This document shows, in pieces, positions 12,831 through 53,504 of a stretch of DNA of 64,000 nt; positions within the stretch are counted from its first letter, which is position 1, and every line of letters starts with the position of its first letter. Position numbers and translations under genes: made by a program. The notes beneath the pieces are model-generated. The model was not told the DNA's origin. It saw only the letters and a program-made list of their open reading frames with translations, and made no database searches. This DNA comes from Isurus oxyrinchus (taxonomy: Eukaryota): the NCBI GenBank assembly GCA_026770705.1, contig JANJGN010000006.1:45136001-45200000 (forward strand), read 5' to 3'.

Positions 12831-13385
12831 CTACCACCCGATTACACCCTGACCACCCAACTAACCCCCAGCCCGTCCCAACTATCCCCCCTAAATACCC
12901 CCCAATCCAACCCAGCTATCCCACAACCGTCTGATTAATCTGACCAACCAACCAGCCCCTGAATACTTGCCTGTGCCCCCTACCTGACATAACCATCCAC
13001 CTCACCACCCAACCAGCGTCCGACCACCCAACAAACACCCCTCCCACCTGACTACCTCCCCACCCAACCGCCTTCCCACCTGACCACCACCGACCAACTT
13101 TCTACCTTCTGTGCATTCGACTACCTCCTCTGACCACTCGTCTACTTCCCGTTCACTACCTTTGATCCGACCCAACTACCTTCCCAACCAGACCCAACTA
13201 CCCCTTGCCGCTTGACTACGCTACAGCCCGACTACCCACTCACCCACCTCACACATCTACCCATTCACCCACCTACCCACCTACAAACCTCACCCAATCA
13301 CCCATTTACCCATCTCACCCACTCACCCACCTATCCTCCTCACTCTCCTACCCATTCAGTCACTCATTTTCTCATGCACTCATTC
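12830..13385. repeat. C/A-rich low-complexity decayed minisatellite (CCCACC/CTGACC-like units)
   Basis: Direct composition; G-rich on the minus strand. Confidence 0.8.
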
Positions 13386-13760
13386 AATAACTTAGCAAAA
13401 TTTTTGGGACTTTTAAATACTGACCAGAATATGACCACTAGTGCTATAAAAGGGGATGTGTCCTCTACGTTGATTCCCTTTGCAGATCTCTTCATGGAAT
13501 CCTGCACTGAGGGAGTTCTTTTGTATCCTGCAGGGGAGTTTGGCCAGAAAAAAATGTATCCAGGTAAGTGGGTAGTTTTCTGTCTGATGAGCGTTGGAAG
13601 CAGTGGTTCCAATGCTGATTCGAAGATTTGGACCATTAAAGCGAGGTCCTTTCTGTCTTCTCATGTCGATACAAACAATCCCATGACATCATTTGAAGAG
13701 CAGGGAGTCCTCCTGGTGCCATGGCTAACATTTAACCTTCAATTGATCCCTAAAATAGAT

Positions 13761-16700
13761 GATCACAGGATCACAGAATCACAGAATTTTAACGACACAA
13801 AAGGAGGCTATTTGGCCCATTGTGTCTGCACCGGCTCTCCAAATATGCATTATGACCTAGTGCCATTAGCCTGCCTTTTCCCCATAACCCTGCACATTGT
13901 TTCTATTCAAATATTAATCTAATGCCCTCTTGAATACCTCGATTGAACCTGCCTCCACCACACTTCCAGGCAGTACATTCCAGACCTGAACCACTCGTTG
14001 CGTGAAAGAGTTTTTTTCTCACACCACATTTGCTTGTTTTGCCAATCACTTTAGATATGTGCCCTCTCATTCTTGATCCTTTTATGAACGGGAACAACTT
14101 CTCCCTATCTACTCTGTCCAACCCCTCATGATTTTGAACATCTCTATCAAATCTCTTCTTAGCCTTCTTCTCTCCAAGGAGAACAGTCCCAAGCTCTCCA
14201 ATCTATCCTCATAGCTAAAGTTTCTCATCCCTGGAACCATTCTTGTAAACCTCTTCTCCACTCTCTCCAATGTGTCCACATCGTTCCTATAATGTGGCAC
14301 CCAGAACTGTACACAATACTCCAGCTGAGGTCTAACGAGTGTCTTATATAAATTCAGCATAACATCTTTGCTCTTGTACTCTATGCCCCTATTAATAAAG
14401 CCCAGGAAGCTTTATTAACTGCTCTCTCCAACTATCCTGCCACCTTCAATGATCTCTGCACATATACAACCAGGTCTTTCTGCTCCTGCAGTCCCTTCAA
14501 AATTTCACCCCTTATTTTATACTCTCTCTTGATGTTCTTCCAACCAAAATGTATCACGTCACGCTTCTCCACGTTGAACTTCATCTGCCACCTATCTGGC
14601 CACTCCACCAATTTGTCTATGTCCTCTTGAAGTTCCACACTGTCCTCCCCACAGTTCACAAGCTTTGTATCATCCGCAAGCTTTGAAATTGTCCACTGCA
14701 CACCAAGATCTAGATTATTAATATATATCAGGGGAAGCAAGGGTCCCAATACTGACCCCTGGGGAACTCCACTACAAACCTTCGTCCAGCCCCAAAAATA
14801 TTCATTGACCATTACTCGCTGTTTCCTATTTTGCAGCCAGTTTTGTATCCATGTTTCGACTGTATGTTTTATTCCAAGAGCAATAACTTTCCTCACAAGT
14901 CTGTTGTATGGTGCTGTGTCAAATGCCTTTTCAAAGTCCATGTACACAACATGAACAGCATTCCCTCATCAATCATCTCTGTTGCCTCTTCAAAAGCCTC
15001 TAGCAAGTTAGTTAAACATGATTTCCCTTTTAGAAATCCATGCTGGCTCTTCCTTATCAACACATATTTTTCCACGTGACTACTAATTCTATCCCAAATA
15101 ATTGTTCCTAGAATCTTGCCCACCACTAAAGTCAAACTGACTTGTCTGTAATTGCTGGGCTTATCCTTACAACATTTTTTGAACAAGAGCGTAATGTTTG
15201 CAATTGTCCAGTCATCTGGCATCTTCTCTGAGTCTACGGAAGACTGAAAGGTTATGGCCAGTGCCCCTGCAATTTCTACTCTCACTTCTATCAATAATCT
15301 TGGATTTATTTCATCCAATCCCAGTGCCGTGTCAACTTTAAGTACTAACAGTCTATTCAACACTCCTTCCTTGTGAATTTTGAACCTTTCTAGTGACAGA
15401 CTTTCTTTGTCTGTCACCATGGCCTGGGTAGCATCTACCTCCTTAGTAAAGACGGATGCAAAGTATTCATTTAATACCTCAGCCATGGCCCCTTCATCCA
15501 CGTGTAAATTCTGTGTAAGGTCCCTAATTGGCCCTACTCCTCCTTTTATAACTTTTCTACTATTTATATGTCTATAGAAGACTTTAGGATTCTCCTTTAT
15601 GTTGGTTGACAGTCTTCTCTCATAATCCCTCTTCACTTCTTTAATATGATTTTTCACCTCCCCTCTGAACCTTATGATTCTCATTGTATTTTCTACCTGA
15701 CACCTGTCTTAAGCGCACTTATTCTTCTCTATCTTAATTTCTATTTACTTTTTCATCCAGGTAGCTTTGGATTTGTTTGCCTTACCTTTCACTTTCGATA
15801 GGATATGCCTTGACTGTGCTCAAACCAATTCTTTTTTGAATGTAGCCCATTGTTCAGCTACAGTTTTTCCTGGCAATCTTTCATTCCAGTCTATCTAGCC
15901 TAGCTTTGTTCTTGCCCCATCAAACTTGGCTCTCGTCCGGTTAATTATTCTTACTCTGGATTGCCTATTGTTCTTTTCTATCATCATCCTAAAATGTACA
16001 ATACAATGATCACTGTCTCCTAAATGTTACTCCATTGGCACTTGATCTACCTGGCCCACCTTATTTACAAGAACCAGGTCCAACAGTGCGTCTTTTCTTG
16101 TTGGATTGGACACATACTACTATAGAAAATTCTCCTGAGCACAATTTAGGAATGTTTTCCCCTCTCCACTCTTTACCACCACTGTCCCAGTCTACACTCG
16201 GGTAACTAAAGTCCCCCATTATAACAACCCTATAATGCTTGCATCTCTCTGTCATGTCCCTGCAGATTTGTTCTATATCCTTCTCACTGTTTGGTGGTTT
16301 ATAGACTACACAGAACAATATAATTGTACCCTTTTTTTGTTCCTTAGCTCTAGCCAAATTGATTCTGTCCTTTTACCCTCTGGGGCATCATCTTTCTTTA
16401 GCATTGCAATGTTCTCTTTAACAAATACTGCCCCAATGCCCCCCCACCCCCCCCCCCACCACACCCTTTCCTTCCTTTCCTATCTCTTCTGAACACCTTG
16501 TACCCAAGAATATTTAACACCCAATTCTGCCCTTCCTTGAGCCAGTTCTCTGTTATCGCCACAACATCAAATTTCCATATGACAAACTGCGCCTGTAACT
16601 CCCCAATCTTATTTACTAAAATCAATGCATTCACATACATGCATTGTAACCCTGATTTAGATTTTGTTACTTTCTCCCATGCCCTGATTTTACCTATTAA

Positions 16701-18050
16701 CTTATTATTCTGTTTACTATTGCTATCTGTCCCTCCCAGTATTCCTCTCTAATCTTTTCTCTTCCCACACCGCTGCCGAGTTCGTTTAACGCCCTCCCAG
16801 GAGCACTAGCAAAACACCCCGGAAGGAACACCATTCCAGTTCTGTTCAGGTGCAACCCATCCGCCTTGTACAGGTGCCATCTCCCCCAGAGCCAGTCCCA
16901 GTGTCCCAGGAATCTAAAGCTCTCCCTCCTGCACCGTCTTTCCAGCCACACATTCATCTGCCTTATCTTCCTATTTCAATGCTCACTGGCAGGTGGCACT
17001 AGGAGTAATCTGGAGATTATAACATTAGAGGTCCTGCTTGCTAATTTTTTACCTTGGTCCCTAAATTCTGATTGCAGGACTACATCCCCCTTCCTTCTTA
17101 AGTCATTGGTACCAATGTGGACCACGACCTCTGGCTGATCACCCTCCCCCAGAAGAATGTCTTGCAGCCGCACTGTGACATTCATGACCCTGGCACCAGG
17201 AAGGCAACATACCATCCTGGAGTCACATCTATGGCCACAGAAATGCCTGTCTGTTCCCCTAACCAAAGAATCCCCTATCGCCATAGCTCTTCTTTCTTCT
17301 TCCTTCCCTCCTGTATAGCTGAGTGGCTTTTGCTGCCACAAACTTGGCTCTGACTGCACTTCTCTGGGGAATCAGCGTCCCCACCAGTTTCCAAAATGGA
17401 AAACCAGTTTGTGAGCAGGACCCCAGGGGACTCCTGCACTACCTGCCTAATTCTCTTGGGCTGCCTGGTGGTCACTTATTCCCTCTCTGCCTCCAGGCCC
17501 TTAAGCTGTGATGTGACCACCTCTCTGAATGTGCTATCCACATAGCTCTCAGCCTCATGGATGTCCAACAGTAACTTCAGCTGCCACTCGAGCTCTGAAA
17601 CCTGGAGCTCAAGTTTCTGTACATGTGGTCAGCCAGGACATCAGTAGCATCTGTGACTTCGCACATATTACAGGACACATAGTCCACTCAATTGAGCTGC
17701 CCTGCAATGTTTTACCTCTACTTCCCTTACATTAACTTTATTCTACCAGGATTATTTATATTACTTTATTATATTGGCCCTAAATTTCCCTTATCCCTGG
17801 TGCTTCTCAGTTGAATCCAAGTATAGCAACTTGCTTAAAAATATTATACTTTTCTAATTTAGTCACCAGTTCCTGCTTACCAAGGCCACCGCACTTCTTT
17901 CTGAGAACCTCCTCCCTTCTCACCGAACTCACTCAGTCACCAAACTGAAGCACTTGACTGCAGCCAAAAACAGCACTCCAGTATAGACAAAGTTAGCACT
18001 ATCAGATAGCCTACTTTTATACTCTCTAAACTAGCCTCTGAAAACCTGAT
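13761..18050 (-). mobile_element. Near full-length degenerate CR1 LINE (ORF1 with SGNH esterase; ORF2 APE endonuclease plus RT)
   Basis: ORF1 IGDSLVRG, CCLPGAR, VHIGTND, DGLHLN; EN YVNA..., GDFSYP.VDW; RT QHGF, DFEKAFD, VPQGSVLGP, LADDT; (ATTCTGTG)n tail at 13761-13787. Many stops and frameshifts. Confidence 0.95.
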
Positions 18051-19059
18051 TAAGCCAGTTTTCTAATATGGTCATTTATTTCCTTGTTTGTTGTTGGAGC
18101 TTCCACTCTGCTATATGGTTGCTATTTTACATTTACATCTCTGGCAGAAGAGCAACAGGAACCTGTGCAAATACCAAGGGCTGGATCTAACAGAGGTTGG
18201 TGGGGCGGGGGGAATGTGGGAGGGGGAGGTGTCTCAATAGTCCAAAGGGCAGTCAGCCTAGTGGTTAACTTACTCTCTCCCCGTATTATGGAGAATACAT
18301 GGAGAGTTGTAGGGAAGGAGATGGGCCGGGACCTGACATACCTTATGCGTTCCCCTGCTGAAAAATCTAGCCACATGAATTTACAGCAGCCAAGTTGGGG
18401 AACACTGGTGGAAATTCACCTCTTCATGTTAAAATTTGCAAGTCACCTTTTCCAGAGGTTTGATGAACTGTTCAAGCAATGATCTAAAGCTTGGAAATTC
18501 CACAGAGATTTTCCCACTCACCCATGGTAATTTTAATAAGAGATTGGCAGCACCCCTGGAGAAATTGGGAATACAATTGGTAATAGTTGTTCCAATATTC
18601 CTCTGAACGTTGCACCAGTTTTGGGATGAATGGAGAAAATACCCAAAGCATTTCAGGGCCTAAATCTCCAAAGGTTTCCTAATTTTGCATAACCTGTAAC
18701 ATGACAGGATCTTTAACTTCATGGATCACTGATTTGATTTTGTTGAAGATACTTATTTAAATTTTTATATTTGACTTTTTTTTAGAGTGTTTGACTTATT
18801 TTGTTTTTCTAGTTTCTTTGTAGTGTAACATTTGGATGCCTATAAGCTATTTAAGCACCAACACAGGAACTAGTGAAATTTAAATTTAATTAATTTAAAA
18901 AAATTTGGAATCGAGAGCTAGTCTCAGTGATGGTGACCATGAAACTAATGCACCAGTTAATTTCTTTACCTAGGAAGAGTGTCCTGCAGTCAGCATCATG
19001 GTGAAGCAGTCTGGGAAGATTGTCCTGCAGTTAGCTCTTGTTGAAAATAACAAGAGTGT

Positions 19060-20810
19060 CATCACAAGACAGTGTGAGAGAGCATCGGAGAGATCAGAAC
19101 CAGCATGAGTATGGGGAAGCTTCGAAAAGTAACATCAGCTAAAAGGTGAGAGCTGATTGGTGACTAGTGGGTAAATGTTTCTCTCCAGTTTTTTTTTTCC
19201 AGTTTAAAATAGATTAAGCTAAGGAAAGGTAAGGGTTCTGGTTTTTATTTAAAGTACATAAAAAATGTAACTTTTTTTACTGTATTTAACTTAAAGAAAG
19301 GGTATTTTTTTCAAATAGAGGCATGGCAGGGCAACTGTTTTATATACTGGCTGCAACATGCGGGAAATCCTAGATGCTCCTTGTGCTCTGACCAACCAAG
19401 TGTGCAGGAAGTGCCACCAGCTGCAGCTACTTGCGCTCTGAGTTTCGGAGCTTGAGTGGCAGCTGGAGGCACTGAGGTGCCTCCCTGAGGCTGAGAGTTT
19501 CGTATATAGCACATTTTTAGACATGGTCACCCCACAGCTTATGGAGGTGCAAACAGAGAAGGAATTGGTGACCATCAGTCAGAAGAAAGGTGTCAGATAG
19601 GTAGTCATGAAATCCTCAAGACGCATCTCGCTTGAGGACTGTTTATCTGTGTTGGAAAATGGTGAAAGTGACGGTTCCTCTGGGGAGTGCAGCCTAAATC
19701 TGCACTCTGCAGATCATGGCAGTGGGAGTGGCTCAGCTGCACAGGGGGAGAGGAAAAAGAGGGGAAGAGCAATAATGATACGGGACACAATAGCAAGAGG
19801 AACATACAGGCGTTTCTGTAGCCGTATAGGTGACTCCAGGATGGTACATTGCTTCCCTGGTGCCAGGGTCCAGGATGTCACTGAACAGCTGCAGGGCATT
19901 CTAAAGGGGGAGGGCAAACAGACAGAGATCGTGGTGCATATTGGTACCAATGACATAGGTAGAAAGAGGGATGAGGTCCTGCAAGCAGAATTTAGGGAAC
20001 TAGGAAACATTAAAAAACAGGACCTCAAAGGTAGTAATCTCTGGATTACTTCCGGTGCCATGGGCTAGTGAGTATAGAAATAGGAGGTTAGTCCGGATGA
20101 ATGCATGGCTGGAGAGCTGGTGCGAGGAAAGGCTTTAGATTTCTGGGACATTGTGACCGTTTCTGGGGGTGATGGGACCTGTACAAGGCGGATGGGTTGC
20201 ACCTGAACCGGAATGGGATCAACATCCTTGTGGGGAGGTTTGCTAGTGCTGTTGGGGAGGGTTTAAATTAACTTGGCAAAGGTATTGGATCCTGAGAGGG
20301 GGTTCAGCAGGGGAAGATGCACAGCCAAAATTAGAAGAGAGAGCAAATGAGTCTGGAAGGCATGAGCATTTAGTTATGAGGAGAGATTGGATAGACAGGG
20401 GTTATTTTCCTTGGAACAGAGGAGGGGACATTATTGAGGTGTATAAAATTATAAGGGGCATAGATAGGGTACGCAGCAAGGAACTTTTCCCCTTGGTAGA
20501 GGGATCAATAACCAGGGGGCATAGATTTAAGGTAAGGGGCAGGAGGTTTAGAGAGAATGTGAGGAAGAACTTTTTCACCCATAGGGTGGTGGAAATCTGG
20601 AACTCACTGCCTGAAAGGGTGGTAGAGGCAGAAACCCTCATAACATTTAAGAAGTATTTGGATATGCACGCGCGATGCCATGGCATACAAGGTTATGGGC
20701 CTAATGCTGGAAAATGGGATTAGAATAGTTAGGTACTTGTTTGACTGGTGCAAACCCACTGGGCTAAAGGTCCTTTTTCTGTACTGTAGACCTCTATGAC
20801 TCCATGACTA
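19060..20810 (+). mobile_element. Internally deleted CR1: 5'UTR plus ORF1 joined to the last ~110 codons of ORF2 and the 3' tail
   Basis: ORF1 from ATG ~19323 with Cys-pair/zipper and esterase motifs (HCFPGAR, VHIGTND, DGLHLN); jumps at ~20370 to SYEERL...TRGH..K...FFTHRVV..WNSLP; tail CTCTATGACTCCATGACT. Confidence 0.85.
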
Positions 20811-20992
20811 AAATTGCTCTTCCAAGCAGATTTCTAGTCCCTTTTCTTCAAGGACTTAACCAATTCTCCACAGGCAGCAGCTTCTGCGTAACAGGATTCC
20901 ACCCATGAAATCTTCCCTTTGTGGCATACCTCTTTCCTTTCTTCTTTCTGCCTTTGCCTGCTTTCTCTTTGTGACTGCCACAGGATTTCCAG

Positions 20993-21615
20993 CGGCAGAA
21001 TTTTCACCTTGGTGGGCAGGCGTGCACCTGACCTGCTGAAGCGTAAAATGATGTGCGATGATGTCAGGTGAGCATCCCAACGTCAACACACAGTTTTGCA
21101 GTCATCTGGTCAGCGGGAATTGGCAGTGCGCCTGCCGATAATTAGAAGGCCTATTAAGACCATCTAAGTATTAACTAACTTAAATTTTTCGCTGCCCGTC
21201 CAACCTTACAGTTGGCAAGCAGGCAAAAAGGCCAGTCGGCTATTGCACTTTTTTGGAAACCTCATCCACGGGCAGAATGAGGTTTTCCAACATCAAATAA
21301 AAATATAATAACATTTTTAAAATTTAATTTATAACATGTCCCCACTCATGTGACAGAGTAACATGAGGGGGCATGTTTTATAACACTTTTAAAAATCTTT
21401 ATGTCTAATTTTTAAAATTCTTCATCTCCCTGAGGCAGCTCTGCGCTCCTCCCCCCCACACACAGGCAGTGCTGAGGGCTGCTATTCGCGTTTTGCACCG
21501 GGTGGGCATTAATTGGCTCGCTAGCATGAAATCGTGGTCCCGCCCTGATGATGGGTGGCGGCCAGCTTCCTGACTGCCCTTGCCAAGCCCGCCTGACAAG
21601 GGCAAAATTCTGCAT
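20993..21615. mobile_element. Harbinger-type MITE (~620 bp)
   Basis: TIRs CGGCAGAATTTT / AAAATTCTGCAT; CAG TSD at 20990-20992 and 21616-21618; related to copies at 42974 and 45320. Confidence 0.8.
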
Positions 21616-24416: not shown

Positions 24417-25027
24417 GGGTGAAATATTTTTAGGCAAGGGGAGGCAGGTTTGGGTGTGCGCGGGGTGTTAAATTGACCTAACTGTTAGGATCAGCCTGCA
24501 TAAAACATTGCTTCAGCCTCAACGGTAGCATTGCATCCAATTCTGGGCATCTCACTTTATAGAAAGGATGTAAAGGCTCGAGACAGGGTGCAGAAAGGGA
24601 CGAGAATGGCAGCGGTGGCAGAGAGGTGCCAGCCAATCAAAGGCTGGCAGCATTTTTGCTCAGCAATGTCACTGAGGGGTGATGGCTGCTACAGAAACGA
24701 CAGTCACCAGTTGCCTAGGATCAAGGAGAGACCCAGGCCACAGGGAAAGTAAAAGCAGAAGCAGGTCTCGCAGAATGGGGGTCATGGTGTAGGATGCTGT
24801 AAAGGAGTGCAGGGAGGTTGGAAGCAAGGATGGGGTGGGCAGCACTCTCAGCAGATCCATCCCCCTTCCCAATGCTGGGTCCCTCAAGTAGGTCCTTTGA
24901 AGGAGGCCCCCAAGGCCCCCATCATGGGAGATGATGAGCAACTGGTACAGATTTACTTGTCGTAATCCCCACAAGGCTACAGGCCTGCCCGTAGCCGGGT
25001 CAATATCAGCAGAGAAAGGATGAGGCC
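24417..25027. mobile_element. Harbinger-type non-autonomous element, left part (right part ~32049-32238), host of the Gypsy insertion
   Basis: Ends GGGTGAAATATT and AAGATTCCACCC are imperfect TIRs; TTAATTGCCCACTTAA motif shared with other MITEs in the window. Confidence 0.55.
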
Positions 25028-25263
25028 TGTTACAGAGTTGATCTTCAGACAACTTTTCTTATTAGAAACATTTGGTTTTATTTACAATAGAGCAGTGGCA
25101 ACTATATGCATCAAAAAAACTCCATAACTAAAAGACGTACTCTCCCTGTAAAGGTTCCCCGCGCTGCTATTGCATTGGTTGATACAGATCATGTGATCTT
25201 ACATCACAGGATTATTCTTAAAGCTATAGTCCAACATTTCCCAAAACTATAATTATTACTACA
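25028..25263 (-). repeat. 3' LTR of the Gypsy element
   Basis: Direct repeat of 31821-32048, abutting the polypurine tract. Confidence 0.92.
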
Positions 25264-25787
25264 TTCCTCCTCCTTTAACTTTTCTGAACATTTTGTATTT
25301 ACAAGGATATTTATCTCATGACATTACAATATTTACACAGGTCATGGAATTACAAGTTCAGGCTTTCAGGCGGCTTCCTGATCCGTGTGGAATGTTGCAG
25401 TTCCAGGACTTCAGATTCTTTTGTAGTAAACACATTCCCTGGAACCACATTAAATTCTGATACCTCATTAGGCACATTCAGTTCATTGTCTTCCACTCTG
25501 ACAAAGACATCAGGCATGTCTATCCTTGGTTAAACATCTTCAACAGAAATCAGTGGTTCCATCATCGTTACAGGTAGAACAATATCTTATTGTGTTATCT
25601 CTCTTTCTCTTAAATGATCCACATACTTACGGGTCTTCCATTTCCATATGGTATCACAGTGGTCCGGTCACTGAATTCACTTTACCAGGAAACCACTTCA
25701 GTCCTCCATCGAAATTCTTGACATATACTGCATCTCCAACAGTAAATTTTCTCTCACAACTGTGCAAATCATGAGTCGCTTTTTGGT

Positions 25788-28700
25788 ACAGCGATAGAAG
25801 GATGAGTGATGTGTTGCTGCTGCAATAAGTGAGCGCTGCTGGACACCAAGGTGATCCAGAGTGAACACATCTTTACCAGATGTTGCAGCTCAAGGAACTT
25901 TGGATCCGAGTTAAGGAGCTGGAGTCTGAGCTGCAGACGTGGCACCACATCAGGGAGGGGGAAAGTTACCTAGACACTTTGTTCCAGGAGGTGGTCACAC
26001 CTCTCAGATTAGGTCATTCAAATTTGGTCTGTGATCAAGGATGGGAGGGTGTGCCTGCAGGTGAAACAGAAATGGGGACCCAGGGGCTAGCGTTCAAGGA
26101 GCCTCAGCTCCTGCAACTGTCCAACAGTTACGAGGTTATTGCAAGCTGTGTGGACGAGAGCGGAGACTGCAGGGAGTATGAGCGAACTGACCATGGCACC
26201 ATGGTACAGGGAGCCATTCAAGTTGGGGGAGAAAATAGGAACATAGTAGTGGTAGGGGACAGTGTAATGAGGGGGATAGATGCTGTTCTCTGCAGCCATG
26301 AACGTGAGTCCTGAAGGCTGTGCTGCCTGTCCTGTGCCAGGCTTAAGGACATCTCCTCAGGATTGGAGAGGAACTTGGAGTGGGAGGGGAGGGATCCAGT
26401 TGTCGTTGTCCACACTGGTATCAATGACATTGATAGGGCTAGAAAGGAGGTTTTGCTGAAATAATTTGAACAGTTAGGAGTTAAATTAAAAAGCAAAATC
26501 TCCCAGGTAATAATGTTGGGATTACTACCTGAGTCACGGGCAAACTGGCATAGGGTAAATAAAGTCAAAGAGTTAAATGCGTGGCTCAGATATTGGTGTG
26601 GGGGGAATGGGTTTCAGTTCATGGAGCACTGGCATCAGTGCTGGGGTAGAAGAGAGCTGTTCCAGTGGGATGGGCTTCATTTGAACCGTGCTGGTACCAG
26701 TGTCCTGGTGAACCAAATAACTAGGGCTATAGAGAGGTCTTTAAACTAAAAAGGGGGGGGGGGGGGTGGCTCTGGAAAGGGGATCTGTAGGCTTACAAAG
26801 CAAAAGGATGTGGCAGCTTTGCAGGGCAGACATTTAGGTAATGATACCCAGAGTGTGACAAGAAGGGACAGAATATACAAACATTAAAAAAAGCAGCAAA
26901 TAGGGTCAAAAGGGGAAAAGAATGATCAAACAGCAAAATTAATGGTTCTTTACTTAAATGCATATAGTATTTGGAACAAAATAAATGAATTAACGGCACA
27001 AATAGAGGTTAATGGCTGTGATCTTATAGCTATTAATGAGATGTGGTTACAAGGAGATCAACGCTGAGAACCAAATATTCAGGGTTTTCGAAAGAACAGG
27101 CAGGAAGGAAAGGGTGGTGGGGTAGCTTTGTTAGTATGAGATGGAATAAATACAATGGCAAGAAAAGATCTTGGATCAGAAGATGTAGAATCCAAATGGG
27201 TGGACGTAAGAAGTAACAAGGGGAAGGAGATACTGGTGAGAGTAGTCTATAGGCCCTCTTAACAGTAACTATACTGTAGGACAGAGAATAAATCAGGAGA
27301 TAATGAGGGCATGTAAGAAAAGCAGTAAATTAATCATGGGTGACTTTAATCTCCATGTAGATTGGGCAAATCAAATTGGCAGAGGTAACCACAAGCTGTA
27401 ATTCATAGAGTGTATTTGGGACAGTTTCCCAGAACAATATGTTGTGGATCTAACCAGGGATCAGGCTATTTTGGATCTGGTAATGTGTAATAAGGAAGGT
27501 TTAATAAATAATCTCAGAGAAAAAGATACCCTAGAAAACAGTGACCATAATATGGTAGAATTTAGCATTCAGTTTGAGAGTGAGAAACTTGGGTTGGAAA
27601 CAACCGTGCTAAACTTAGATAAGGGTAATTAGAAAGGAATGAGGGCAGAGTTGGCTGGAGTGGACTTGGATAGGATTTTAGCAGAAAAAAAGCTTGATGA
27701 ACAATGGCAGATATTGAAGAAAATAGTTCATGACTCTCAACAAAAATATATCCCAGTGAGGAAGAAGGATTCGAGGAATGGGATAAACAAATCATGGTTA
27801 ACCAAGGAAGTTAAAGATAGTATCAAATTAAAAGAAAAGACATACAATGTGACAAAGATTAGTGATAAACCAGCTGATTGGGAAAGTTTTAAAAACAAAC
27901 AGAAGATAACCAAAAAATAGTAGAGGGAGAAAATAAACTTTGAGGGTAAACTAGCAAATAATATAAAAATGGACAGTAAGAGCTTCTTTAAATATATAAA
28001 AAGGAAAAGAGAGGCCAAGGTGATCTTAGGTTTCTTACAGAACGAGGCTGGGGAAATAATAATGGGGAACCAGGAAATGGCAAAGTACTTGAATACTTTG
28101 CTTCAGTCTTCACGGTAGAAGACACTAATAGCATTCCAATACTAAATAATCAAGAGGAGAAAGAAGGGGAGGAAATAAATGCAATAACTATCACCAGAGA
28201 AAAGTACCAGGGAAACTAATGGGGCTAAAGGCTAATAAGTCCCTTCGACCTGATGGGTTGCATCATAGGATATTAAAGGAAGTAGCTGCAGAGATAGTGG
28301 ATGCACAAGTGGTAATCTCCCAAGAATCCATAGATTCTGGAAAAGTCCCAGAGGATTGGAAAACTGCCAATGTAACACCCTTATTCAAAAAGGGAGAGAG
28401 ACAAAAAATGGTAGCTATAGGCTTAACATCTGTCATTTGGGAAATATTAGTTTCTATTATAAAGGGTAATAGCAGAGCATTTAGAATTACATAATCTAAC
28501 CAAGTAGAGTCAGCATGGCTTCATGAAGAGGAAATCATGCCTGACAACTTTATTAGAATTCTTTGAGGAGGTAACAAGCAGGATAGATAAAGGGGAACCA
28601 GTAGATGTGATATATTTGCATTTCTAAAAGTCATTCAATAAGGTATTGCACGTAAGGCTACTTAATAAGATAAGAGCCCATGGCATTGGGGGTAGTATAT

Positions 28701-29811
28701 TAGCATGAATAGAAGATTGGCTAACTAATAGAACACAGAGAGCTGGGAGAAGGGGGGCAGTTTCAGCGTGGCAACCTGTAACACATAGAGTGCAACAGGG
28801 ATCAGTGCTGGGGCCACAATTATTTACAATATATATTAATGACTTGAATGAAGGAATTGAATGTACCATCGCCAAATTTGCAGATGATACATAAATAGGT
28901 GGGAAGGCATGTGGTGAAGATGACACAAAGAGTCTCCAGAGGGATAAAGACAGGTTAAGTGAGTGGGAAAAAAAGTAAAAAGTGGCAAATGGAATATAAT
29001 GTGGGAAAATGTGAGGTTATGCACTTTGGCAGAAAGAATAGAGGAGCTGAATATTATTTAAATGGAGGAAGACTGCAGAAGGCTGCAGCACAGAGGGATT
29101 TGGCAGTCCTTGTGTATGAATCCTAAAAAGCTAACATAGAAGTTCAACAGGTAATAGGGAAGGCAAATGGAATGTTGGCCTTTATTTCAAAGGTAATGGA
29201 ATATAAAAATAGGGAAGCCTTGATAAAACTATGCATGGCACTGGTTAGACCATGCCTAGAATGCTGTGAACAATTTTGGTCCCCTTATCTAAGGAAAGAT
29301 ATACTGGCATTGGAGGCAGTCCAGGTTGATCTTGAGTATGGAGGGATTTTCTTATGAGGAGAGGTTGAGTAGGTTAGGTCTGTACTCATTGGAGTTTAGA
29401 AGAATGAGAGGTGACCTCACTGAAACATATAAGATTCTTAGGAGGCTTGACAGGGTAGATAATGAGAGGTTCTTTCCCCCTGTGGGAGTCTAGGACCAGA
29501 GGGCATAATCTCAGAGTAAGGGGTCACCCATTTAAGATAGAGATGAGGAGGAATTTCTTCTCTCAGGGGGTAGTTAATCTGTGGAATTCTTTACCACGGA
29601 GGGCAGTAGAAGCTGAGTTTTTAAATATATGCAAGGCTGAGATAGACAGATTTTTCAATCAGTATGGGAATCAAGGGCCATGGGGAAAAGGCAGGAATGT
29701 GGAATTGAGGATTATCAGATCAGCCATGATCTCATTGAATGGCAGAGCAGACTCGATGGACCAAATGGCCTACTTCTGCTCGTACATTTTATGGCCTTAT
29801 GGTCTTATGGT
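25788..29811 (+). mobile_element. Near full-length degenerate CR1 LINE inserted in the Gypsy integrase tail
   Basis: ORF1 esterase (VVGDS, WDGLHLN); EN (YLNA, GGGVAL, GDFN, SDHN); RT (PDGLH, QHGF, QGSVLGP, FADDT); (CTTATGGT)n tail; TGGT at both junctions. Confidence 0.95.
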
Positions 29812-29929
29812 TCCCTTGACTTTTCTCCACCTTCCCCTCCAAATTGGGAAGTATTAAGTTCAGTCTTGTCTGAAGACGACACCTCATCAGTAATTCTGCA
29901 TCTTCTTTCTACGTGTCTCCTTTTTACCA

Positions 29930-30470
29930 CAGAGCTTCATCTAGGCTTTCTTTTTGACTTCACAGTTGGCCAGGCTTCTCTCAGATGCAATCTCAACTTG
30001 TTTCAGTTCAGTAGCTGAGCTACCCAAGACTTCATTATCTGCTTGCATCTTGGAAAGTTCTAGGATTTTCACTTCCAAAACTTCTTTAGCTTCACTCAGC
30101 TGACTCTTCAGCTCTTCTGTTTCTTTCTTGCATCTGTTGGCTCCCTCCTGGAAAGTTGAACATTGCTGCATCTTCCCTGCCAACTGGGTCTTCAGTTTGT
30201 TCAGGGAGGTGTCAAATCTTCCTGTTTCTCTTCATACTTTTCCAGAGGCACAAACGTTGACCTGAGGGAACCTTATAATGTGTGAAGGTCTTTCAACAGG
30301 TTTTCCTTTTCTTTGTGAAGGTTACTCACTTCGCTTGGAACTCTGTCATTCAGCATAGTCTCCTTAAGTTTCTTCTGCTGTTCTTCAATGTTGTTGTTTA
30401 AGGCAGTTTTTATTTCTTCAGACTGTTAAATCGTACACACTCCTTTCTCATCCTGTTGCAATCCTCAGAC
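29930..30470 (-). pseudogene. Coiled-coil fragment resembling the UACA/RAI14/ANKRD24 repeat, inside the LTR element
   Basis: Stitched translation QSEEIKTALNNNIEEQQKKLKETMLNDRVPSEVSNLHKEKENLLKDLHTL*GSLRSTFVPLEKYEEKQE/FDTSLNKLKTQLAGKMQQCSTFQEGANRCKKETEELKSQLSEAKEVLEVKILELSK; the VPLE..EE spacer between heptad runs is typical of this family. Similarity judged from memory. Confidence 0.65.
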
Positions 30471-30479
30471 TCTTCAGGC

Positions 30480-31758
30480 TCTTTCTGAAGTACCTTGCCT
30501 TGTTCCTTTTTCCAGACAAGAACTCTTCCAGCTTCCTTTGGAAATCTCACTGGCCAATCAAGGTTAATTTCCCTTTTCCAAATTAGACCTAGAAGGCTTG
30601 GTCCTCTGCCTTTCAATACTATCACTGGTAGATATGCCAATTAGTTTGTATAATGAACAGTTGCTCTGGTGATACCTTTCACTTGGATTTCTTCGCCTGT
30701 GTAGGTTTTAAACTTTGCAGATGTTTGTTCCAATTTTAATTGTTGACCATCTTTATTTAACTATCTGAAAGTATGTTCTCCTATTAGAGTGGTGGAAGCT
30801 CCCGTGTCTACTTCCATTTTTAATGGTTTACCATTTTCTTGCACTGTAACAAATATTGGCTCTGTCTTCCTAACTTTCATGTTGAAAAGTGAATAAATGT
30901 CAGAATTTGTTGTTTCAGGCTCTTCTACATTATAAACTTCATTGGACTTCATTTGTTGTTTGGAAGCCTGTTTAAATCTTGCTTTGCACTGTCTCATTAT
31001 CTGTCCACTTATGTGACAAAAATAACATTCTACTTTTTAAAATTGCCAACCGCTAAAAGACTGATTGTTTCCACATTGCTGAAAGTTATTTTTTGATTTA
31101 GTTACTAAGCAGTTTCTTCTCAATTTTCAGTTAGTGGGGGCTGTTACCCACTTTGCGACAGAGTCCCAGCTTTTCACGCGACATTCGGCTAACCGTTCCT
31201 GCCCTATTTGGAGTACGGGGCCATTTTGTGCCCCTTGGATTACTTGTGAATCCCTTACAGCGCTTTCCATTGCCAGTGCTATTTCTAACACCTCTTTAAA
31301 ATCAAAATTCACTTCAGCCAGCAATATTCACTGAATAGTGTCTCTCTGTACGCTGCATATAAATGATCTCTGAGCATGTCATGTCATTCAGGGTTTCACC
31401 AAAATCACAATATTCCATTAGTTGCTTTAATTTCACTACGTAAGTAGCAATTGTCTCACTCTGAGCTGTACTTAGTGAATTGAACCTGAACATCTGCATT
31501 GTGACGGAGGGCTTGGGTTGAAATTGTCCCTTATCGAGGTCTACTAATTCACTGAAAGTCTTCGAATCTGGGACACTGGGGGCTGTCAAACTTCGAACCA
31601 AACTGTAGGTTTTGCTCCCACAAGTACTTAGGAGGATCGCTGTCCTCTTCTTCCTCCATGATTTTGTTTGCTTGAAAGAAGAACGCAAGGCATTCTATAT
31701 ACTGACACCAACTGTCCATGGCTGGCTCAAAGGGATCGATTCTACTGCACTGTGGCAT
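30480..31758 (-). pseudogene. Degenerate Gypsy gag plus aspartic protease
   Basis: MPQCSRIDPFEPAMDSWCQY; AILLSTCG; decayed Zn knuckle CYFCHISGQIMRQC; NGKPLKMEVDTGAS; collinear with the element at 61527-62850. Confidence 0.9.
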
Positions 31759-31820
31759 TTCGAATGAATATTTCTTCTGATATTTTTAACACTGACTCTA
31801 ATTTATCTTTGTCATCAGTT

Positions 31821-32048
31821 TGTTATAGAGTTGATCTTCATACAACTCTTAGTGGAAACATTTGGTTTTATGTACAAGACTTTAGTGGCAACTACACACA
31901 TCCAATAAACTCCATAACTAAGAAGTACTCTCCCTTTAGAGGTTTCCTGTGCTGGTTACACATTGGTTTACACAGATCATGTGATCTTACATCACAGGAT
32001 TATTCTTAAAGCTATAGTCCAACATTTCCCAAAAATATAATTACTACA
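31821..32048 (-). repeat. 5' LTR of the Gypsy element
   Basis: Direct repeat of 25028-25263, next to the PBS remnant. Confidence 0.92.
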
Positions 32049-32699
32049 AGGCCCTTAGTGGTTATTAATTGCCCACTTAAGAGCCTCAGTTGGTGGGCAG
32101 GGTAGAAGGTTAACCAAGAGCTTTCCCACCCTAGACTTAATTGGGGTGGAGATGGGAAGGTGGCAGGCTGCTCACCTGCCTCCCTCCTGCCCAATTAAAT
32201 ACCCTCCCCGCCACTACAGAAGACCAAAGATTCCACCCTATAATTCTACAAAGTGGCATCAGGTTGGCATCCTGGCAAAATCCCCCCCTCTTTCAGCTTT
32301 CACCTGGGTGAGTTCCAAGATGAGTAGGGAACCCCTGCCTAGCTATCAGGAAACTCGTTAGGAGATGCAAATTGCCAACCAAGTCTGACTTTAACCCTGT
32401 GATCTGGCTTTAACTAACATTGAAGGGGTTTAACAATGTCCCAACATCTCACCAGGTTGGAGGAGGCATGTGCACACCCAGAAGTCAATGTTGGCTGAAA
32501 CGGATCTCATGGCAACAATATAAAGGCTGAAATCAGCCAGCTTGTAGTTAGCTGCAGCAAAAGGTTAGCACTGACAGGAGCCGTTCTATCCAGTCTGAAT
32601 TCAGTGGTTTCAGAGGGAATTGCAACATTTTGCATTAACTTTCAATTGCACTGGAGTCCATTGCGCTCATCTTCAACTTCATGCCTGTGAGACTTCCCT

Positions 32700-38340: not shown

Positions 38341-38409
38341 AAACAAAAACAAAAACAGAATTACCTGGAAAAACTCAGCAGGTCTGGCAGCATCGGCGGA
38401 GAAGAAAAG

Positions 38410-38448
38410 AGTTGACGTTTCAAGTCCTCATGACCCTTCGACAGAACT
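38410..38448 (-). ncRNA. Minimal hammerhead ribozyme-like motif (variant core CUGUCGA)
   Basis: AGUU-CUGUCGA-AGGGUC AUGAG GACUU-GAAA-CGUC-AACU. Confidence 0.6.
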
Positions 38449-39195
38449 TGAGTTCGAGTCCAAGAAAGAGTTGAAATATAAGCTGGTTTAAGGTGTGTGT
38501 GTGAGGGGCGGAGATAGAGAGAGAGAGAGAGGTGGGGGGGGGTGTGGTTGTAGGGACAAACAAGCAGTGATAGAAGCAGATCATCAAAAGATGTCAGCAA
38601 CAATGGTACAAAAGAACACATAGATGTTAAAGTTAAAGTTGGTGATATTATCCGAACGAATGTGCTAATTAAGAATGGATGGTAGGGCACTCAAGGTATA
38701 GCTCTAGTGGGGGTGCTTTTTTTTAATTTTTTTTAAAAATAATGGAAATAGGTGGGAAAAGGAAAATCTTTATAATTTATTGGAAAAAAAAGGAAGGGGG
38801 AAACAGAAAGGAGGTGGGGATGGGGGAGGGAGCTCACGACCTAAAGTTGTTGAATTCAACATTCAGTCTGGAAGGCTGTAAAGTGCCTAGTCGGAAGATG
38901 AGGTGTTGTTCCTCCAGTTTGCGTTGGGCTTCACTTGAACAATGCAGCAAGCCAAGGACAGACATGTGGGCAAGAGAGCAGGGTGGAGTGTTAAAATGGC
39001 AAGTGTCAGGGAGGTTTGGGTCATTCTTGCGGACAGACTGCAGGTGTTCTGTAAAGCGGTCGCCCAGTTTACGTTTGGTCTCTCCATTGTAGAGGAGACC
39101 ACATTTGGAGCAACGAATGCAGTAGACTAAGTTGGGGGAAATGCAAGTGAAATGCTGCTTCACTTGAAAGGAGTGTTTGGGTCCTTGGACGGTGA

Positions 39196-41102
39196 GACAT
39201 TAGTCGTCTCAATTTCTCTGCTCCTCTCATCCATTCTAACCTGTCTCTCTCTGAACTTACTACACTCCATTCTCTCAGGTCCAACCCTGACATTGTCATC
39301 AAACCCGCTGACAAGGGTGGTGCTGTTGTTGTCTGGCGCATTGACCTCTACCTCGCGGAGGCTGAGCGTCAACTCGCAGATACTTCCTCCTACCTCTCCC
39401 TGGACCATGACCCCACCACTGAACATCAAGCCATTGTTTCCAGGACTGTCACTGACCTCATCTCCTCTGGGGATCTCCCTCCCACAGCTTCCAACCTGAT
39501 AGTTGCCCAACCTCGGACGGCCCGCTTCTATCTCCTACCCAAAATCCACAAACAGAACTGCCCCGGTAGACCGATCGTCTCAGCTTGCTCCTGCCCCACA
39601 GAACTCATTTCTCGTTATCTTGACTCCCTTCTCTCTCCCCTTGTCCAGTCCCTTCCCACCTACATCCATGATTCCTCTGACACCTTATGTCACATCAACA
39701 ATTTCCAGTTCCCTGGCCCCAACCGCTTCCTCTTCACCATGGACGTCCAATCCCTCTACACCTCCATCCCCTGCCAGGATGGTCTGAGGGCCCTTAGCTT
39801 CTTCCTCGAACAGAGACCCGAACAATCCCCATCCACCACTACACTCCTCCGTCTGGCTGAACTTGTTCTCACACTGAACAATTTCTCCTTCAACTCCTCT
39901 CACTTCCTCCAAATAAAAGGTGTGGCTATGGCTACCCACATGGGCCCCAGCTATGCCTTTCTCTTTATGGGGTATGTGGAACATTCCTTGTTGCAGTCCT
40001 ACTCCGGCCCCCTTCCACAACTCTTTCTCCGGTACATCGATGATTACTTCGGTGCCGCTTCATGCTCTCGTTGGGACTTGGAAAAATTTATTAATTTTGC
40101 TTCCAATCTCCACCCCTCCATCATTTTCACGTGGTCCATCTCTGACACTTCCCTTCCCTTCCTTGACCTCTCTGTCTCAATCTCTGGTGATAGACTGTCC
40201 ACCAATATCCATTACAAACCCACCGACTCCCACAGCTATCTCGACTACAGCTCCTCACACCCCGCTTCCTGTAAGGACTCCATCCCATTCTCTCAGTTCC
40301 TTCGCCCCCGTCGCATCTGTTCCAATGATGCTACCTTCAAAAACAGTTCCTCTGACATGTCCTCCTTCTTCCTTAACCGAGGTTTTCCACCCACGGTCGT
40401 TGACAGGGCCCTCAACCGTGTCCGGCCCATCTCCCGCGCATCCGCCCTCACGCCTTCTCCTCCCTCCCAGAAATATGATAGGGTCCCCCTTGTTCTCACT
40501 TATCACCCCACCAGCCTCTGCATTCAAAGGATCATCCTCCGCCATTTCTGCCAACTCCAGCATGATGCCACCACCAAACACATCTTCCCTTCACCCCCCC
40601 TATCGGCATTCCGTAGGGATCGCTCCCTCCGGGACACCCTGGTCCACTCCTCCATCACCCCCTACTCCTCAACCCCCTCCTATGGCACCACCCTATGCCC
40701 ATGCAAAAGATGCAACACCTGCCCCTTCACTTCCTCTCTCCTCACCGTCCAAGGACCCAAACACTTTTTCAAGTGAAGCAGCATTTCACTTGCATTTCCC
40801 CCAACTTAGTCTACTGCATTCGTTGTTCCAAATGTGGTCTCCTCTACAATGGAGAGACCAAACGTAAACTGGGCGACTGCTTTGCAGAACACCTGCAGTC
40901 TGTCCGCAAGAATGACCCAAACCTCCCTGTCGCTTGCCATTTTAACACTCCACCCTGCTCTCTTGCCCACATATCTGTCCTTGGCTTGCTGCATTGTTCC
41001 AGTGAAGCCCAATGCAAACTGGAGGAACAACACCTCATCTTCCGACTAGGCACTTTACAGCCTTCCGGACTGAATATTGAATTCAACAACTTTAGATCGT
41101 GA
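39196..41102 (+). pseudogene. PLE RT plus GIY-YIG endonuclease, 5'-truncated, one frameshift at ~40768
   Basis: Frame open 39196-40776: IKPADKGG, YLLPKIHK, GRPIVS, DVQSLYTSIP, QIKGVAM, RYIDD, PFLD, linker CPCKRCNTC; then VYCIRCSKC..YNGET..EH..E..LIFRLGT.QP.GLN. Confidence 0.95.
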
Positions 41103-41495
41103 GCTCCCTCCCCCATCCCCACCCCCTTTCTGTTTCCCCCTTCCTTTTTTTTCCAATAAATTATAAAGATTTTCCTTTTCCCACCTATTTCCATTATTTT
41201 TAAAAAAAATAAAAAAAAACACCCCCACTAGAGCTGTACCTTGAGTGCCCTACCATCCATTCTTAATTAGCACATTCGTTTAGATAATATCACCAACTTT
41301 AACTTTAACACCTATGTGTTCTTTTGTACCATTGTTGCTGACATCTTTTGATGATCTGCTTCTATCACTGCTTGTTTGTCCCTACAACCACACCCCCCCT
41401 CCACCTCTCTCTCCCTCTCTCTCTCTCTCTCTCCGCCCCCCACACACACACCTTAAACCAGCTTATATTTCAACTCTTTCTTGGACTCGAACTCA

Positions 41496-41534
41496 AGTTC
41501 TGTCGAAGGGTCATGAGGACTTGAAACGTCAACT
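41496..41534 (+). ncRNA. Minimal hammerhead ribozyme-like motif (variant core CUGUCGA)
   Basis: Stem I AGUU/AACU, stem II GGGUC/GACUU, GAAA, GUC triplet ending at 41530. Confidence 0.6.
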
Positions 41535-41699
41535 CTTTTCTTCTCCGCCGATGCTGCCAGACCTGCTGAGTTTTTCCAGGTGATTCTGTTTTTGTTTTTG
41601 TTTTGGATTTCCAGCATCCGCAGTTTTTTTGTTTTTATCTCTGTTTTGAGTTCATATGGCTCTTCGTCAGAGTCTTCAGAAGAATACTCTTCTCAGTTT

Positions 41700-52300: not shown

Positions 52301-53504
52301 AACAAAAACAGAATTACCTGGAAAAACTCAGCAGGTCTGGCAGCATCGGCGGAGAAGAAAAGAGTTGATGTTTCGAGTCCTCATGCCCTTCAACAGAACT
52401 AGGTGAATCCAAGGAGAGGGGTGAAATATAAGCTGGTTTAAAGTGGGGGGTGGGGGGGTGGGGGGGTGGGGTGTTGAGTGGGGGGAGAGAAGTGGAGGAG
52501 GGTGTGGTTGTAGGGACAAGCCAGCAGTGATAGGAGCAGATAATCAAAAAATGTCACAGACAAAAGAACAAAAGAACACGTGTTAAAGTTGGTGATATTA
52601 TCTAAACGAATGTGCTAATTAAGAATGGATGGTAGGGCACTCAAGGTATAGCTCTAGTGGGGGTGGGGGGGCATAAAAGATTTAAAAATAATGGAAATAG
52701 GTGGGAAAAGAAAAATCTATATGAATTATTGGAAAAAAACAAAAGGAATTGGGAAGAAACAGAAAGGGGGTGGGGATGGAAGAGGGAGTTCAAGACCTAA
52801 AGTTGTTGAATTCAATATTCAGTCCGGAAGGCTGTAAAGTGCCTAGTCGGAAGATGAGGTGTTGTTCCTCCAGTTTGCATTGGGCTTCACTTGAACAATG
52901 CAGCAAGCCAAGGACAGACATGTGGGCAAGAGAGCAGGGTGGAGTGTTAAAATGGCAAGCGACAGGGAAGTTTAGGTCATTCTTGTGAACAGACCGCAGG
53001 TGTTCTGCAAAGCGGTCACCCAGTTTACGTTTGGTCTCTCCAACGTAGAGTCGACCACATTGGGAGCAACGAATGCAGTAGACTAAGTTGGGGGAAATGC
53101 AAGTGAAATGCTGCTTCACTTGAAAGGAGTGTTTGGGCCCTTGGACGGTGACGAGAGAGGAAGTGAAGGGGCAGGTGTTACATCTTTTGCGTGGGTATGG
53201 GGAGGTGCCATAGGTAGGAGTTGAGGAGTAGGGGGTAATGGAGGAGTGGACCAGGATGTCCCAGAGGGAACGATCCCTACGGAATGCCAACAGATTTGCC
53301 TTCCTTCTCCCCCCTACACTTCTCTCCCCCCCTTAAACCAGCTTATATTTCACCCCTCTCCTTGGATTCACCTAGTTCTGTTGAAGGGTCATGAGGACTC
53401 GAAACGTCAACTCTTTTCTTCTCCGCCAATGCTGCCAGACCTGCTGAGTTTTTCCAGGTAATTCTGTTTTTGTTTTGGATTTCCAGCATCCACAGTTTTT
53501 TTAT
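52301..53504. mobile_element. Second fold-back Neptune PLE: minus arm 52301-53290 (GIY-YIG), short plus arm ~53292-53504
   Basis: Intact 166-codon endonuclease frame (VYCIRCSQC..YVGET); ~15-bp TSD TTATTAC(T/C)TGCTATA at 52287-52301 and 53505-53519. Confidence 0.92.
53374..53412 (+). ncRNA. Hammerhead-like motif, variant core CUGUUGA (mirror copy at 52363-52400, minus)
   Basis: AGUU-CUGUUGA-A-GGGUC AUGAG GACUC-GAAA-CGUC-AACU. Confidence 0.6.

Follow-up and report, generated by a model that had tools for sequence, protein, structure and literature searches.

A Dead Gypsy Element of Isurus oxyrinchus and the Probable Relay of a UACA-Derived Coiled Coil between LTR Families

In the genome of Isurus oxyrinchus, a stretch of 64,000 nucleotides (contig JANJGN010000006.1, positions 45,136,001 to 45,200,000, hereafter the window) contains at 25028..32048 a gypsy element with long terminal repeats (LTRs), in which a coiled coil resembling the host protein UACA occupies the place of the pol core. 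The locus raises the question of how this coil reached the element and whether it was ever of use there. The answer preferred here, which we consider probable, is that this dead element belongs to a family, B, whose coil was likely relayed from an older LTR family by template switching and whose fusion with Gag and protease was likely translated.

The focal element and its family

The focal copy belongs to a non-autonomous gypsy family of 3.0 kb and is dead; its own parts all lie on the minus strand. It is bounded by identical target site duplications (TSDs) of GGCCT at 32049..32053 on the 5' side and 25023..25027 on the 3' side. The 5' LTR (31821..32048, 228 bp, TGT...ACA) pairs with the 3' LTR (25028..25263), the two being identical at 199 of 228 aligned bases (87%), and is 81−82% alike to the LTRs of the full-pol partners described below, while a polypurine tract (25264..25285) stands directly before the 3' LTR. 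The LTRs, tract and TSD of the original prediction are therefore all present; of its primer binding site (PBS), the position at 31800..31820, a place conserved across copies, retains only a PBS-like stretch that is decayed in the focal copy.

Internally, gag (30950..31758) comprises a capsid region, a spacer and a zinc knuckle near 31030, and its match to PF03732 (E 1.1e-4) scores under the profile cut-off. Next comes the N-terminal part of an aspartyl protease (30635..30949), with DTG at 30808 and a match to the full-pol partner; PF13975 scores under the cut-off in the focal copy (E 7e-5) and over it in copy L029. The protease frame remains positionally collinear with that of a neighboring gypsy element (62546−62854) up to approximately 30478, as had been noted before. 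The stretch at 30456..30634, which takes in the final ~25 codons of the protease and what was formerly the linker between protease and RT, is diverged from the partner and common to a second family, B'. It is followed by two pieces of UACA-derived coiled coil, corresponding to aa ~902−1020 (30105..30455) and aa ~1167−1204 (30001..30111), which are joined over a 450-nt deletion common to an older family, A, and by a non-UACA flank of ~100 nt from family A (29899..30000), whose basic tail ends the fusion frame in B. The integrase C-terminal remnant was correctly predicted to begin at 29899, near which the junction shows 5 nt of shared letters; its first part (AELLMR..., 29805..29899) is out of frame with the fusion, and it resumes at 25787 (25350..25787, 81% alike to the partner's tail) beyond a plus-strand LINE at 25788..29808, which we take to be of CR1 type (RVT_1 piece, E 4.5e-6) and which is a later insertion private to the focal copy. 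The element is devoid of RT, RNase H and integrase core. Since gag, protease and insert are all broken by stops and frameshifts, the focal copy is dead, as previously stated.

The possibility that this arrangement is a one-off rearrangement is answered by the number of its copies, which were taken from the top matches and not randomly sampled. At least 221 matches to the 3' junction were found, with 0 in the control, and all 40 scored matches span nearly the whole 781-nt junction-to-junction query. Of 15 two-LTR copies (14 of B and one partner), 10 are flanked by TSDs that have no more than one mismatch and differ from copy to copy, and 26 of 30 protease-first loci contain the insert with no RT match. 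A multicopy non-autonomous family is thus confirmed. Additionally, five of 40 protease-first matches run on into RT-RH-IN with the LTR of B, so that a putative helper for mobilizing the family in trans exists, in agreement with the original prediction. Partners L167 and L176 display the order PR-RT-RH-IN, as in Ty3/gypsy, and the five partners L167, L168 and L176−L178 resemble B in LTR (75−87%), gag-protease (81−83%) and, where present, integrase tail (81−82%), levels equal to those between B copies. Going by the separate TSDs, RT and integrase were probably provided in trans by these full-pol elements.

Descent of the insert

The identity of the insert with UACA, as originally proposed, is supported by the protein search, in which six of the seven matches were shark UACA (best 58% identity, E 1.5e-33) and neither RAI14 nor ANKRD24 appeared among the seven, and by the UACA exon of the same genome (G000:C25:4881192-4883918), which has 75% DNA identity to the first UACA piece (30105..30455) and is itself 98.8% alike to Carcharodon UACA. 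An atlas search with the insert returned generic coils only. The heptad-rich coil is therefore UACA, but it is not the single continuous segment once assumed, being composed of two pieces separated by the deletion and followed by the non-UACA flank. As a single 2.7-kb exon contains both pieces, intron loss is uninformative for the UACA cargo.

Family A carries UACA aa ~688−1204, another coil and intron-less exons of TPR. The 450-nt deletion was observed in seven of nine A-deletion copies, 24 of 29 copies of B and 16 of 18 of B', and the non-UACA flank of A is also shared by B. The B insert scores 0.770 against the deletion-bearing A copies and a less close 0.748 against the host, it is nested in A in the tree with clade support of 100/99, and a separate capture is rejected (AU p 0.0048). 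The shared deletion, the shared flank and the tree together show, at the level of sequence comparison, that a single subfamily of A gave rise to the B insert. No LTR or gag remnants of A were detected in B. The source of the middle coil of A was not found in the protein search, the atlas or PDB; a further search gave 150 matches that look like element copies, as judged from the two inspected.

Regarding age, UACA was captured before any of the 18 residues specific to lamnids had arisen. A tree forcing family A together with lamnid UACA is not rejected (p 0.42), so the tree alone fails to fix the age and it is the residue count that dates the capture. As to a possible shared insertion, contigs of a second species show 99% similarity within the copy and 98% in its flank, none of them spanning the LTR-flank junction.

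The insert did not travel by itself. Between 30900 and 30636, B and its full-pol partner differ by 0 fixed differences at 219 positions, whereas in 30634−30455 they differ at 12 of 60 and 27 of 54 bases, compared with only 3 of 60 and 13 of 60 between B and B'. By these counts, the stretch 30634−30455 travels with the insert and is foreign to B's own full-pol partner. Upstream of this cassette (protease end, linker, UACA and basic tail), B and B' each match their own full-pol partner, and the alignments thus show the cassette on two gypsy backbones. It was likely passed from one backbone to the second, that of B', in which case recombination would have brought about the change. The gypsy lineage first joined to the cassette was not found among the elements compared, and the 3' structure of B' differs from that of B.

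The fusion frame and competing explanations

Across copies, one frame of ~620 codons extends through gag, protease and UACA and stops at the 3' junction, so that the protease frame does run into the insert without interruption, as the original prediction held. The distance from protease to insert is 147 nt in 24 of 30 copies of B and 84 nt in 23 of 25 of B', with spacer indels private to single copies. No majority stop occurs across 591 codons among the copies compared; frequent stops were seen at seven codons, six of them CpG-decay sites and none in the majority. A frameshift shared in the gag spacer was considered and ruled out, the one-base gaps being scattered among copies. The frames of B and B' both close with a run of Lys/Arg. 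The predicted continuation into the integrase tail did not hold, in that the distance from insert to tail is 2 mod 3 in 24 of the 28 B copies counted; insert and tail are read in different frames, and the fusion consequently ends at the junction. Annotated proteins of comparable length that fuse a protease to UACA were looked for and none was found, which is weak evidence. Two sequencing runs, guessed to be RNA, contain short, diverged pieces of the family that are not usable for expression.

Selection on the insert appears modest. For changes shared between B and B', omega is 0.39 (0.24−0.66), compared with 0.73 for decay within families, with intervals that overlap slightly and a decay baseline whose CpG-driven spectrum may not match the replicating lineage. 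On the B-to-B' stem, 13 of 28 single-base fixed changes are silent versus 120 of 473 private ones (p 0.016), and third positions are in excess (21 of 42, p 0.028). The stems from A7 to B (p 0.55) and from older A to A7 (p 0.56) exhibit no silent excess, which is thus seen on one of three stems. No stop is fixed on the three stems, where ~3.9 were expected. The two integrase-tail omega rows were left out on account of the different 3' structure of B', which makes the columns non-homologous. The low omega of gag and protease between B and B' was discarded as a sign of selection on the chimera, as it reflects two full-pol backbones instead.

On balance, we lean slightly towards a scenario in which a Gag-protease-coil protein of ~620 residues would have been made, weakly selected during spread and used as a Gag supplier for the element's own RNA. 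It is doubtful, and suggested by analogy, that the coil took over from the RT/integrase portion of the polyprotein, acting as a putative dimerizing arm for protease activation. According to published accounts, activation of HIV protease is helped by RT-RT contact (PMC11998509), and a leucine zipper adjoining the protease boosts its activation, the zipper being N-terminal in that case (PMC5899837).

A passive coil deserves serious consideration as the main alternative, and we regard it as possible. Here the relay would be real and the coil without a role, the frame staying open through in-frame repeats and through the greater stability or better packaging of an RNA whose translation extends further. 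The absence of silent excess on two of three stems favors it, as do the numerous other UACA deletions among A copies and the possibility that A-rich, repetitive coiled-coil mRNAs are easy targets of template switching. The same applies to the in-frame share of short exon repeats (0.71−0.79), owing to which the in-frame deletions of A (102, 282, 450 and 126 nt) were rejected as proof of selection. The silent and third-position excesses on the B-to-B' stem nevertheless point to amino-acid constraint beyond stop avoidance, and two unrelated gag types each acquired a different host coil in frame after the protease.

Under the preferred relay, reverse transcription would have switched templates twice during the transfer from A to B, within a particle that contained both RNAs; the two switches would have fallen on short stretches of common letters, one just past the protease linker and the other at the integrase tail. 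At the 3' junction, ~5 letters are shared between A and the partner's integrase, and the 5' point is blurred by divergence; overall, the apparent junction microhomology amounts to only ~5−8 letters in A/G-rich sequence. Microhomology-mediated repair leaves short junction homologies as well, and the transfer could accordingly have occurred at the DNA level, an A copy having been inserted into a full-pol element or used as a repair template and later trimmed, with no co-packaging. Nested insertions are indeed common here, such as the LINE in the focal copy. We nonetheless judge this route unlikely, considering that B lacks any LTR or gag remnant of A, that both junctions fall inside the captured coil of A, and that the later backbone change at a homologous protease point is the usual pattern of reverse-transcription switching (PMC5131818).

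The other cargo concerns TPR. In family C, a SCAN-gag LTR family, TPR is fused in frame behind the protease, the protease end running in frame into TPR exon 1 in eight of 11 copies. The TPR exons in A and C are joined at splice sites, while in the host they are spread over 15 kb, and it is only for this TPR cargo that the sequences show capture at the RNA level. Thus, two unrelated gag types bear different host coils in frame directly behind the protease. TPR acts at the nuclear basket, and the coils might be thought of as decoys binding host TPR or UACA and aiding passage of the nuclear envelope, with the basic tail of B as a putative nuclear localization signal. Capture of TPR from its first exon, its in-frame fusion and the Lys/Arg run ending both B and B' frames are compatible with this proposal, which is made rather improbable by the lack of TPR in B and by the repeated deletion and reshuffling of the captured pieces.

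The route originally envisaged, in which family B took its insert straight from the UACA mRNA of the host, accords with the UACA identity of the insert, the presence of the host exon and the documented capture of mRNA by vertebrate LTR elements (PMC5131818), but is scarcely credible given that the insert has the deletion and flank of A, is nearer to A than to the host, nests inside A in a tree whose alternative with B apart is rejected, and has no counterpart with deletion and flank among host transcripts or paralogs in the protein or genome search.

Under a broader extension of the preferred reading, which is tentative and less likely than not, shark gypsies would have arrived at least twice (UACA and TPR) at a helper-dependent form in which the coil takes the place of the pol enzymes and serves as the working arm of Gag-protease; the coils would have become portable and been handed on among at least four LTR families since early galeomorphs owing to a benefit for the element carrying them.

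Comparison with known systems

Gene capture by animal LTR elements is known mostly in the form of young, low-copy retrocopies without further spread. Acutely transforming retroviruses are defective, possess a gag-onc fusion in place of pol and are moved by a helper, and maize Bs1 is an example of multi-gene capture. The shark families resemble these systems in that host coding sequence is fused to gag and pol is replaced, and differ in carrying structural coiled coils only, with no oncogene or enzyme, and in having been relayed across germ-line gypsy lineages.

In the LTR-mediated retrocopies of animals, a discontinuous LTR element encloses a piece of host mRNA (Tan et al. 2016, PMC5131818). 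These retrocopies share with the shark families multi-gene chimeras, onward copying as non-autonomous elements and perhaps also short common letters at the switch points; they are young and occupy one or few insertion sites, whereas the shark families comprise hundreds of copies with ancient cargo that is in frame with gag-protease and has moved between families. CrocERV31-nectin3 and CrocERV29-KIT-ligand likewise represent old vertebrate retroelement lineages with captured host mRNA, for which sharing between species and purifying selection are reported (PMC4299795). In that account they are retroviruses with a handful of copies, in which the cargo replaces env or is added, in contrast to the gypsy cargo of sharks, which stands in place of the pol enzymes and is fused to the protease. 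The wheat pair RLG_Quinta/RLG_Cereba is similar in organization, its non-autonomous member having gag and an extra domain, no RT or integrase, and LTR ends, PBS and PPT common with its autonomous partner; RLG_Quinta is a proposed Gag supplier whose extra domain is described as having no known source (PMC11302176), while shark family B has a traced host coil, retains its protease and has yielded no active copy among those compared. No description of these shark families was encountered in the literature searched, mostly at the level of listings and abstracts.

The shark cargo is present in hundreds of copies and has persisted since close to the origin of the modern shark orders. Its shared deletions form a dated chain that would document recombination at the RNA level among distantly related LTR families, a process usually assumed and rarely traceable. 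The recurrence of the protease-then-host-coil design in two gag lineages makes the usefulness of host domains to an element testable. Additionally, copies of these families contaminate shark gene models and would inflate counts of UACA and TPR: an MHC-like gene model of Carcharodon contains a gag-UACA piece, and two catshark gene models resemble the TPR pieces.

Structure, insert identity and copies of family B

The LTR element of the window lies on the minus strand from 32048 to 25028 and contains gag, an aspartyl protease, a coiled-coil insert, and then an integrase tail, which is interrupted by a 4-kb LINE on the opposite strand; without the LINE, its length is 3.0 kb. Both LTRs, the target-site duplication (TSD), and the polypurine tract are present as originally predicted, with 199 of 228 LTR bases identical, GGCCT at both ends, and the tract directly preceding the 3' LTR. 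The copy is indeed dead, since every coding part has stops and frameshifts.

The assignment of the insert to UACA was likewise confirmed. With a natural copy carrying an open insert (L002) as query, seven protein matches were obtained, six of them shark UACA, the best covering UACA 901-1029 (E 1.5e-33, 58% identity). The host UACA exon was also found in the genome (G000:C25:4881192-4883918), is open, and codes for aa 402-1310, its product being 98.8% identical to the Carcharodon protein, which marks the host as a lamnid-like shark. Two segments of that exon, encoding aa ~902-1020 and ~1167-1204, form the insert, and about 100 bases of non-UACA sequence directly follow; being confined to a single exon, the segments carry no information on UACA intron loss.

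The window element belongs to the gypsy family B, and the prediction of a multicopy family with independent TSDs was borne out. All 40 scored matches to a junction-to-junction query cover nearly its full length, the 39 besides the window copy at 82-86% identity, and the 28-base 3' junction has 221 matches at ≤2 mismatches, compared with 0 for the control. This pattern recovered just 10 of 25 copies picked by protease, so family B likely numbers several hundred copies in the genome. Both LTR ends could be placed in 15 copies (14 of B, 1 of its full-pol partner); their mean LTR identity is 87%, and 10 of them have a TSD with ≤1 mismatch, all different. The insert is present in 26 of 30 protease-found loci, with RT continuation in two and interruption in two. 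Five of 40 matches to the protease-first query are full-pol elements bearing the LTR and gag-protease of B, in which RT, RNase H, and integrase domains were detected; four of them also share its integrase tail, and these elements are likely the helpers of family B.

Probable transfer of captured pieces among LTR families

A genome search with UACA revealed numerous copies at scattered sites that contain longer pieces (aa ~688-1204). Those examined belong to a distinct LTR family, A (L035-L054, including L053:1817-6068), which has LTR pairs of its own and in whose 20 loci no match to the gag, protease, RT, or integrase of B was found. These elements, about 4.2-4.5 kb long, comprise a gag-like start (seen by eye only, a Pfam search of it giving none), UACA aa ~688-1204, a coil, and TPR exons in spliced form. 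Among copies there are nested in-frame deletions, the captured pieces are in swapped order in L035, L036, L041, and L048, and UACA, the middle coil, and the TPR start share one 253-residue frame at L199:1168-1929. The middle coil spans about 130 codons (L053:4450-4840), its first ~100 bases being present in the window element at 30000-29899; its source gene was not found by protein search, genome search, atlas, or PDB.

Family B had been proposed to have captured host mRNA directly, a reading contradicted by its sharing of deletion and flank with family A. The alignment of B with A is gapless over the internal deletion and onward into the non-UACA flank of A, and a deletion size of 450 nt was scored in 7 of 9 A copies having the deletion, 24 of 29 of B, and 16 of 18 of B', a sister family. 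Despite the decay of the A copies, B is nearer to those bearing the deletion (0.770) than to the host (0.748). In an insert tree built from the host, all 20 A copies, and subsets of B (10 of 30) and B' (5 of 25), 36 rows in total, B and B' group with seven A copies at support 100/99; the alternative in which A and B are separated is rejected (AU p 0.0048). Sequence comparison thus indicates that the insert of family B came second-hand, from family A.

The insert of B is carried on another backbone by B' (40/40 matches; L056:2020-5954, L174, L175), which retains the RNase H end and the whole integrase. A separate full-pol partner exists for B': among 30 integrase-found loci, 16 carry the insert and 11 have RT without it. 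Upstream of about 30634, fixed differences from the own partner number 0/219 for B and 4/237 for B', whereas B and B' differ at 39/219; downstream of it, 3/60 positions separate B from B', and both diverge from their own partners. This similarity switch indicates a single mobile cassette made up of the protease end, the linker, the UACA piece, and the basic tail. In the insert tree, B' falls within B, and its 5' junction is 63 nt shorter, in frame. A second 3' junction was observed in 6 of 30 B' loci, where the insert meets RNase H at a more upstream position.

Behind UACA and the middle coil, family A carries TPR, as indicated by PF25481 over cut-off and TPR protein matches. The exons of the host TPR gene (C16, from 74249796) are spread over about 15 kb, while in the A copy L053 they are joined end to end at splice sites; family A took up spliced mRNA. 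In a further family, C (L084-L087, L089, L182-L197), a SCAN-type gag (PF02023), whose lineage we take to be Gmr1, and protease are fused to TPR from exon 1, and 8 of the 11 copies scored read in frame from the protease end into TPR; in the family C alignments, TPR exon 3 is not seen, nor is exon 2 in most copies. One TPR deletion junction is common to A and C, and TPR was therefore captured once and then transferred, with C the probable donor and A the recipient, because C holds more TPR. Counting A and C together, the genome has at least 74 scattered TPR stretches without introns.

At 18 columns with a residue specific to the host and Carcharodon, A copies match other sharks 18/18, so the UACA capture precedes the changes of the lamnid branch; in the tree, family A and the shark orders form a polytomy. 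The family was found in all bins of a second species, where short contigs match the window copy at 99%, none of them spanning an LTR-flank boundary. Some public gene models seem to contain fragments of these elements: P0012 (Carcharodon), where two MHC-like halves flank a gag-UACA stretch, and P0013 and P0014 (catshark), which look like element-borne TPR pieces.

Reading frame and possible role of the fusion

The predicted stop-free passage from protease into coil was seen in three copies (L004, L007, L029). From the gag start to the insert end, modal distances between in-phase anchors are multiples of three, the protease-to-insert distance being 147 nt in 24 of 30 B copies, and a doubtful frame step in the gag spacer stems from scattered private gaps. 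No stop occurs in the majority at any of 591 codons checked across copies. The fusion frame, about 620 codons as the sum of modal distances, closes at the 3' junction, in the basic tail. The suggested single frame extending into the integrase tail fails, as the tail is in a different frame from the insert in 24 of 28 B copies.

For changes in the insert common to B and B', omega is 0.39 (0.24-0.66), compared with 0.73 for within-family decay. Silent single-base changes account for 13 of 28 fixed and 120 of 473 private changes (p 0.016), with no excess on two older stems, and 0 fixed stops were observed over all stems against about 3.9 expected. In-frame deletions were ruled out as selection evidence, since short repeats within the exon are for the most part in frame anyway. 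On this modest evidence, translation of the fusion under weak selection is somewhat favored. The most economical role, doubtful as it is, would be that of a Gag-protease supplier in which the coil would substitute for the dimer contacts once made by the missing enzymes; it is suggested by analogy with HIV-1, for which published reports describe RT contacts as aiding protease activation (PMC11998509) and an added leucine zipper as boosting it (PMC5899837).

Known systems and other repeats in the window

Capture of mRNA by LTR elements is itself already known. Published accounts describe LTR elements in several animals that capture mRNA via template switching, form multi-gene chimeras, and copy on (PMC5131818), old captures under selection in crocodilian retroviruses (PMC4299795), and a gag-only partner element in wheat (PMC11302176). 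A search of the open literature returned nothing on these shark families; new relative to it are the tracing of a relay from one LTR family to another, how old and how abundant that relay is, and the recurrence of the protease-coil design.

A related gypsy with gag, protease, and RT lies on the plus strand at 61218-64000 and in L055; other repeats break up the window copy, which is truncated in the integrase region, and from about 57211 there is a short relative whose LTR is similar. Inverted and direct repeat copies at 38341-41604 and 52301-53482 are near-identical (93-98%) and the youngest-looking of the window. Strong GC-skew reversal marks 13000-21000, where inverted arms (16763-17619 and 19424-20289) are probably two LINE copies head to head.
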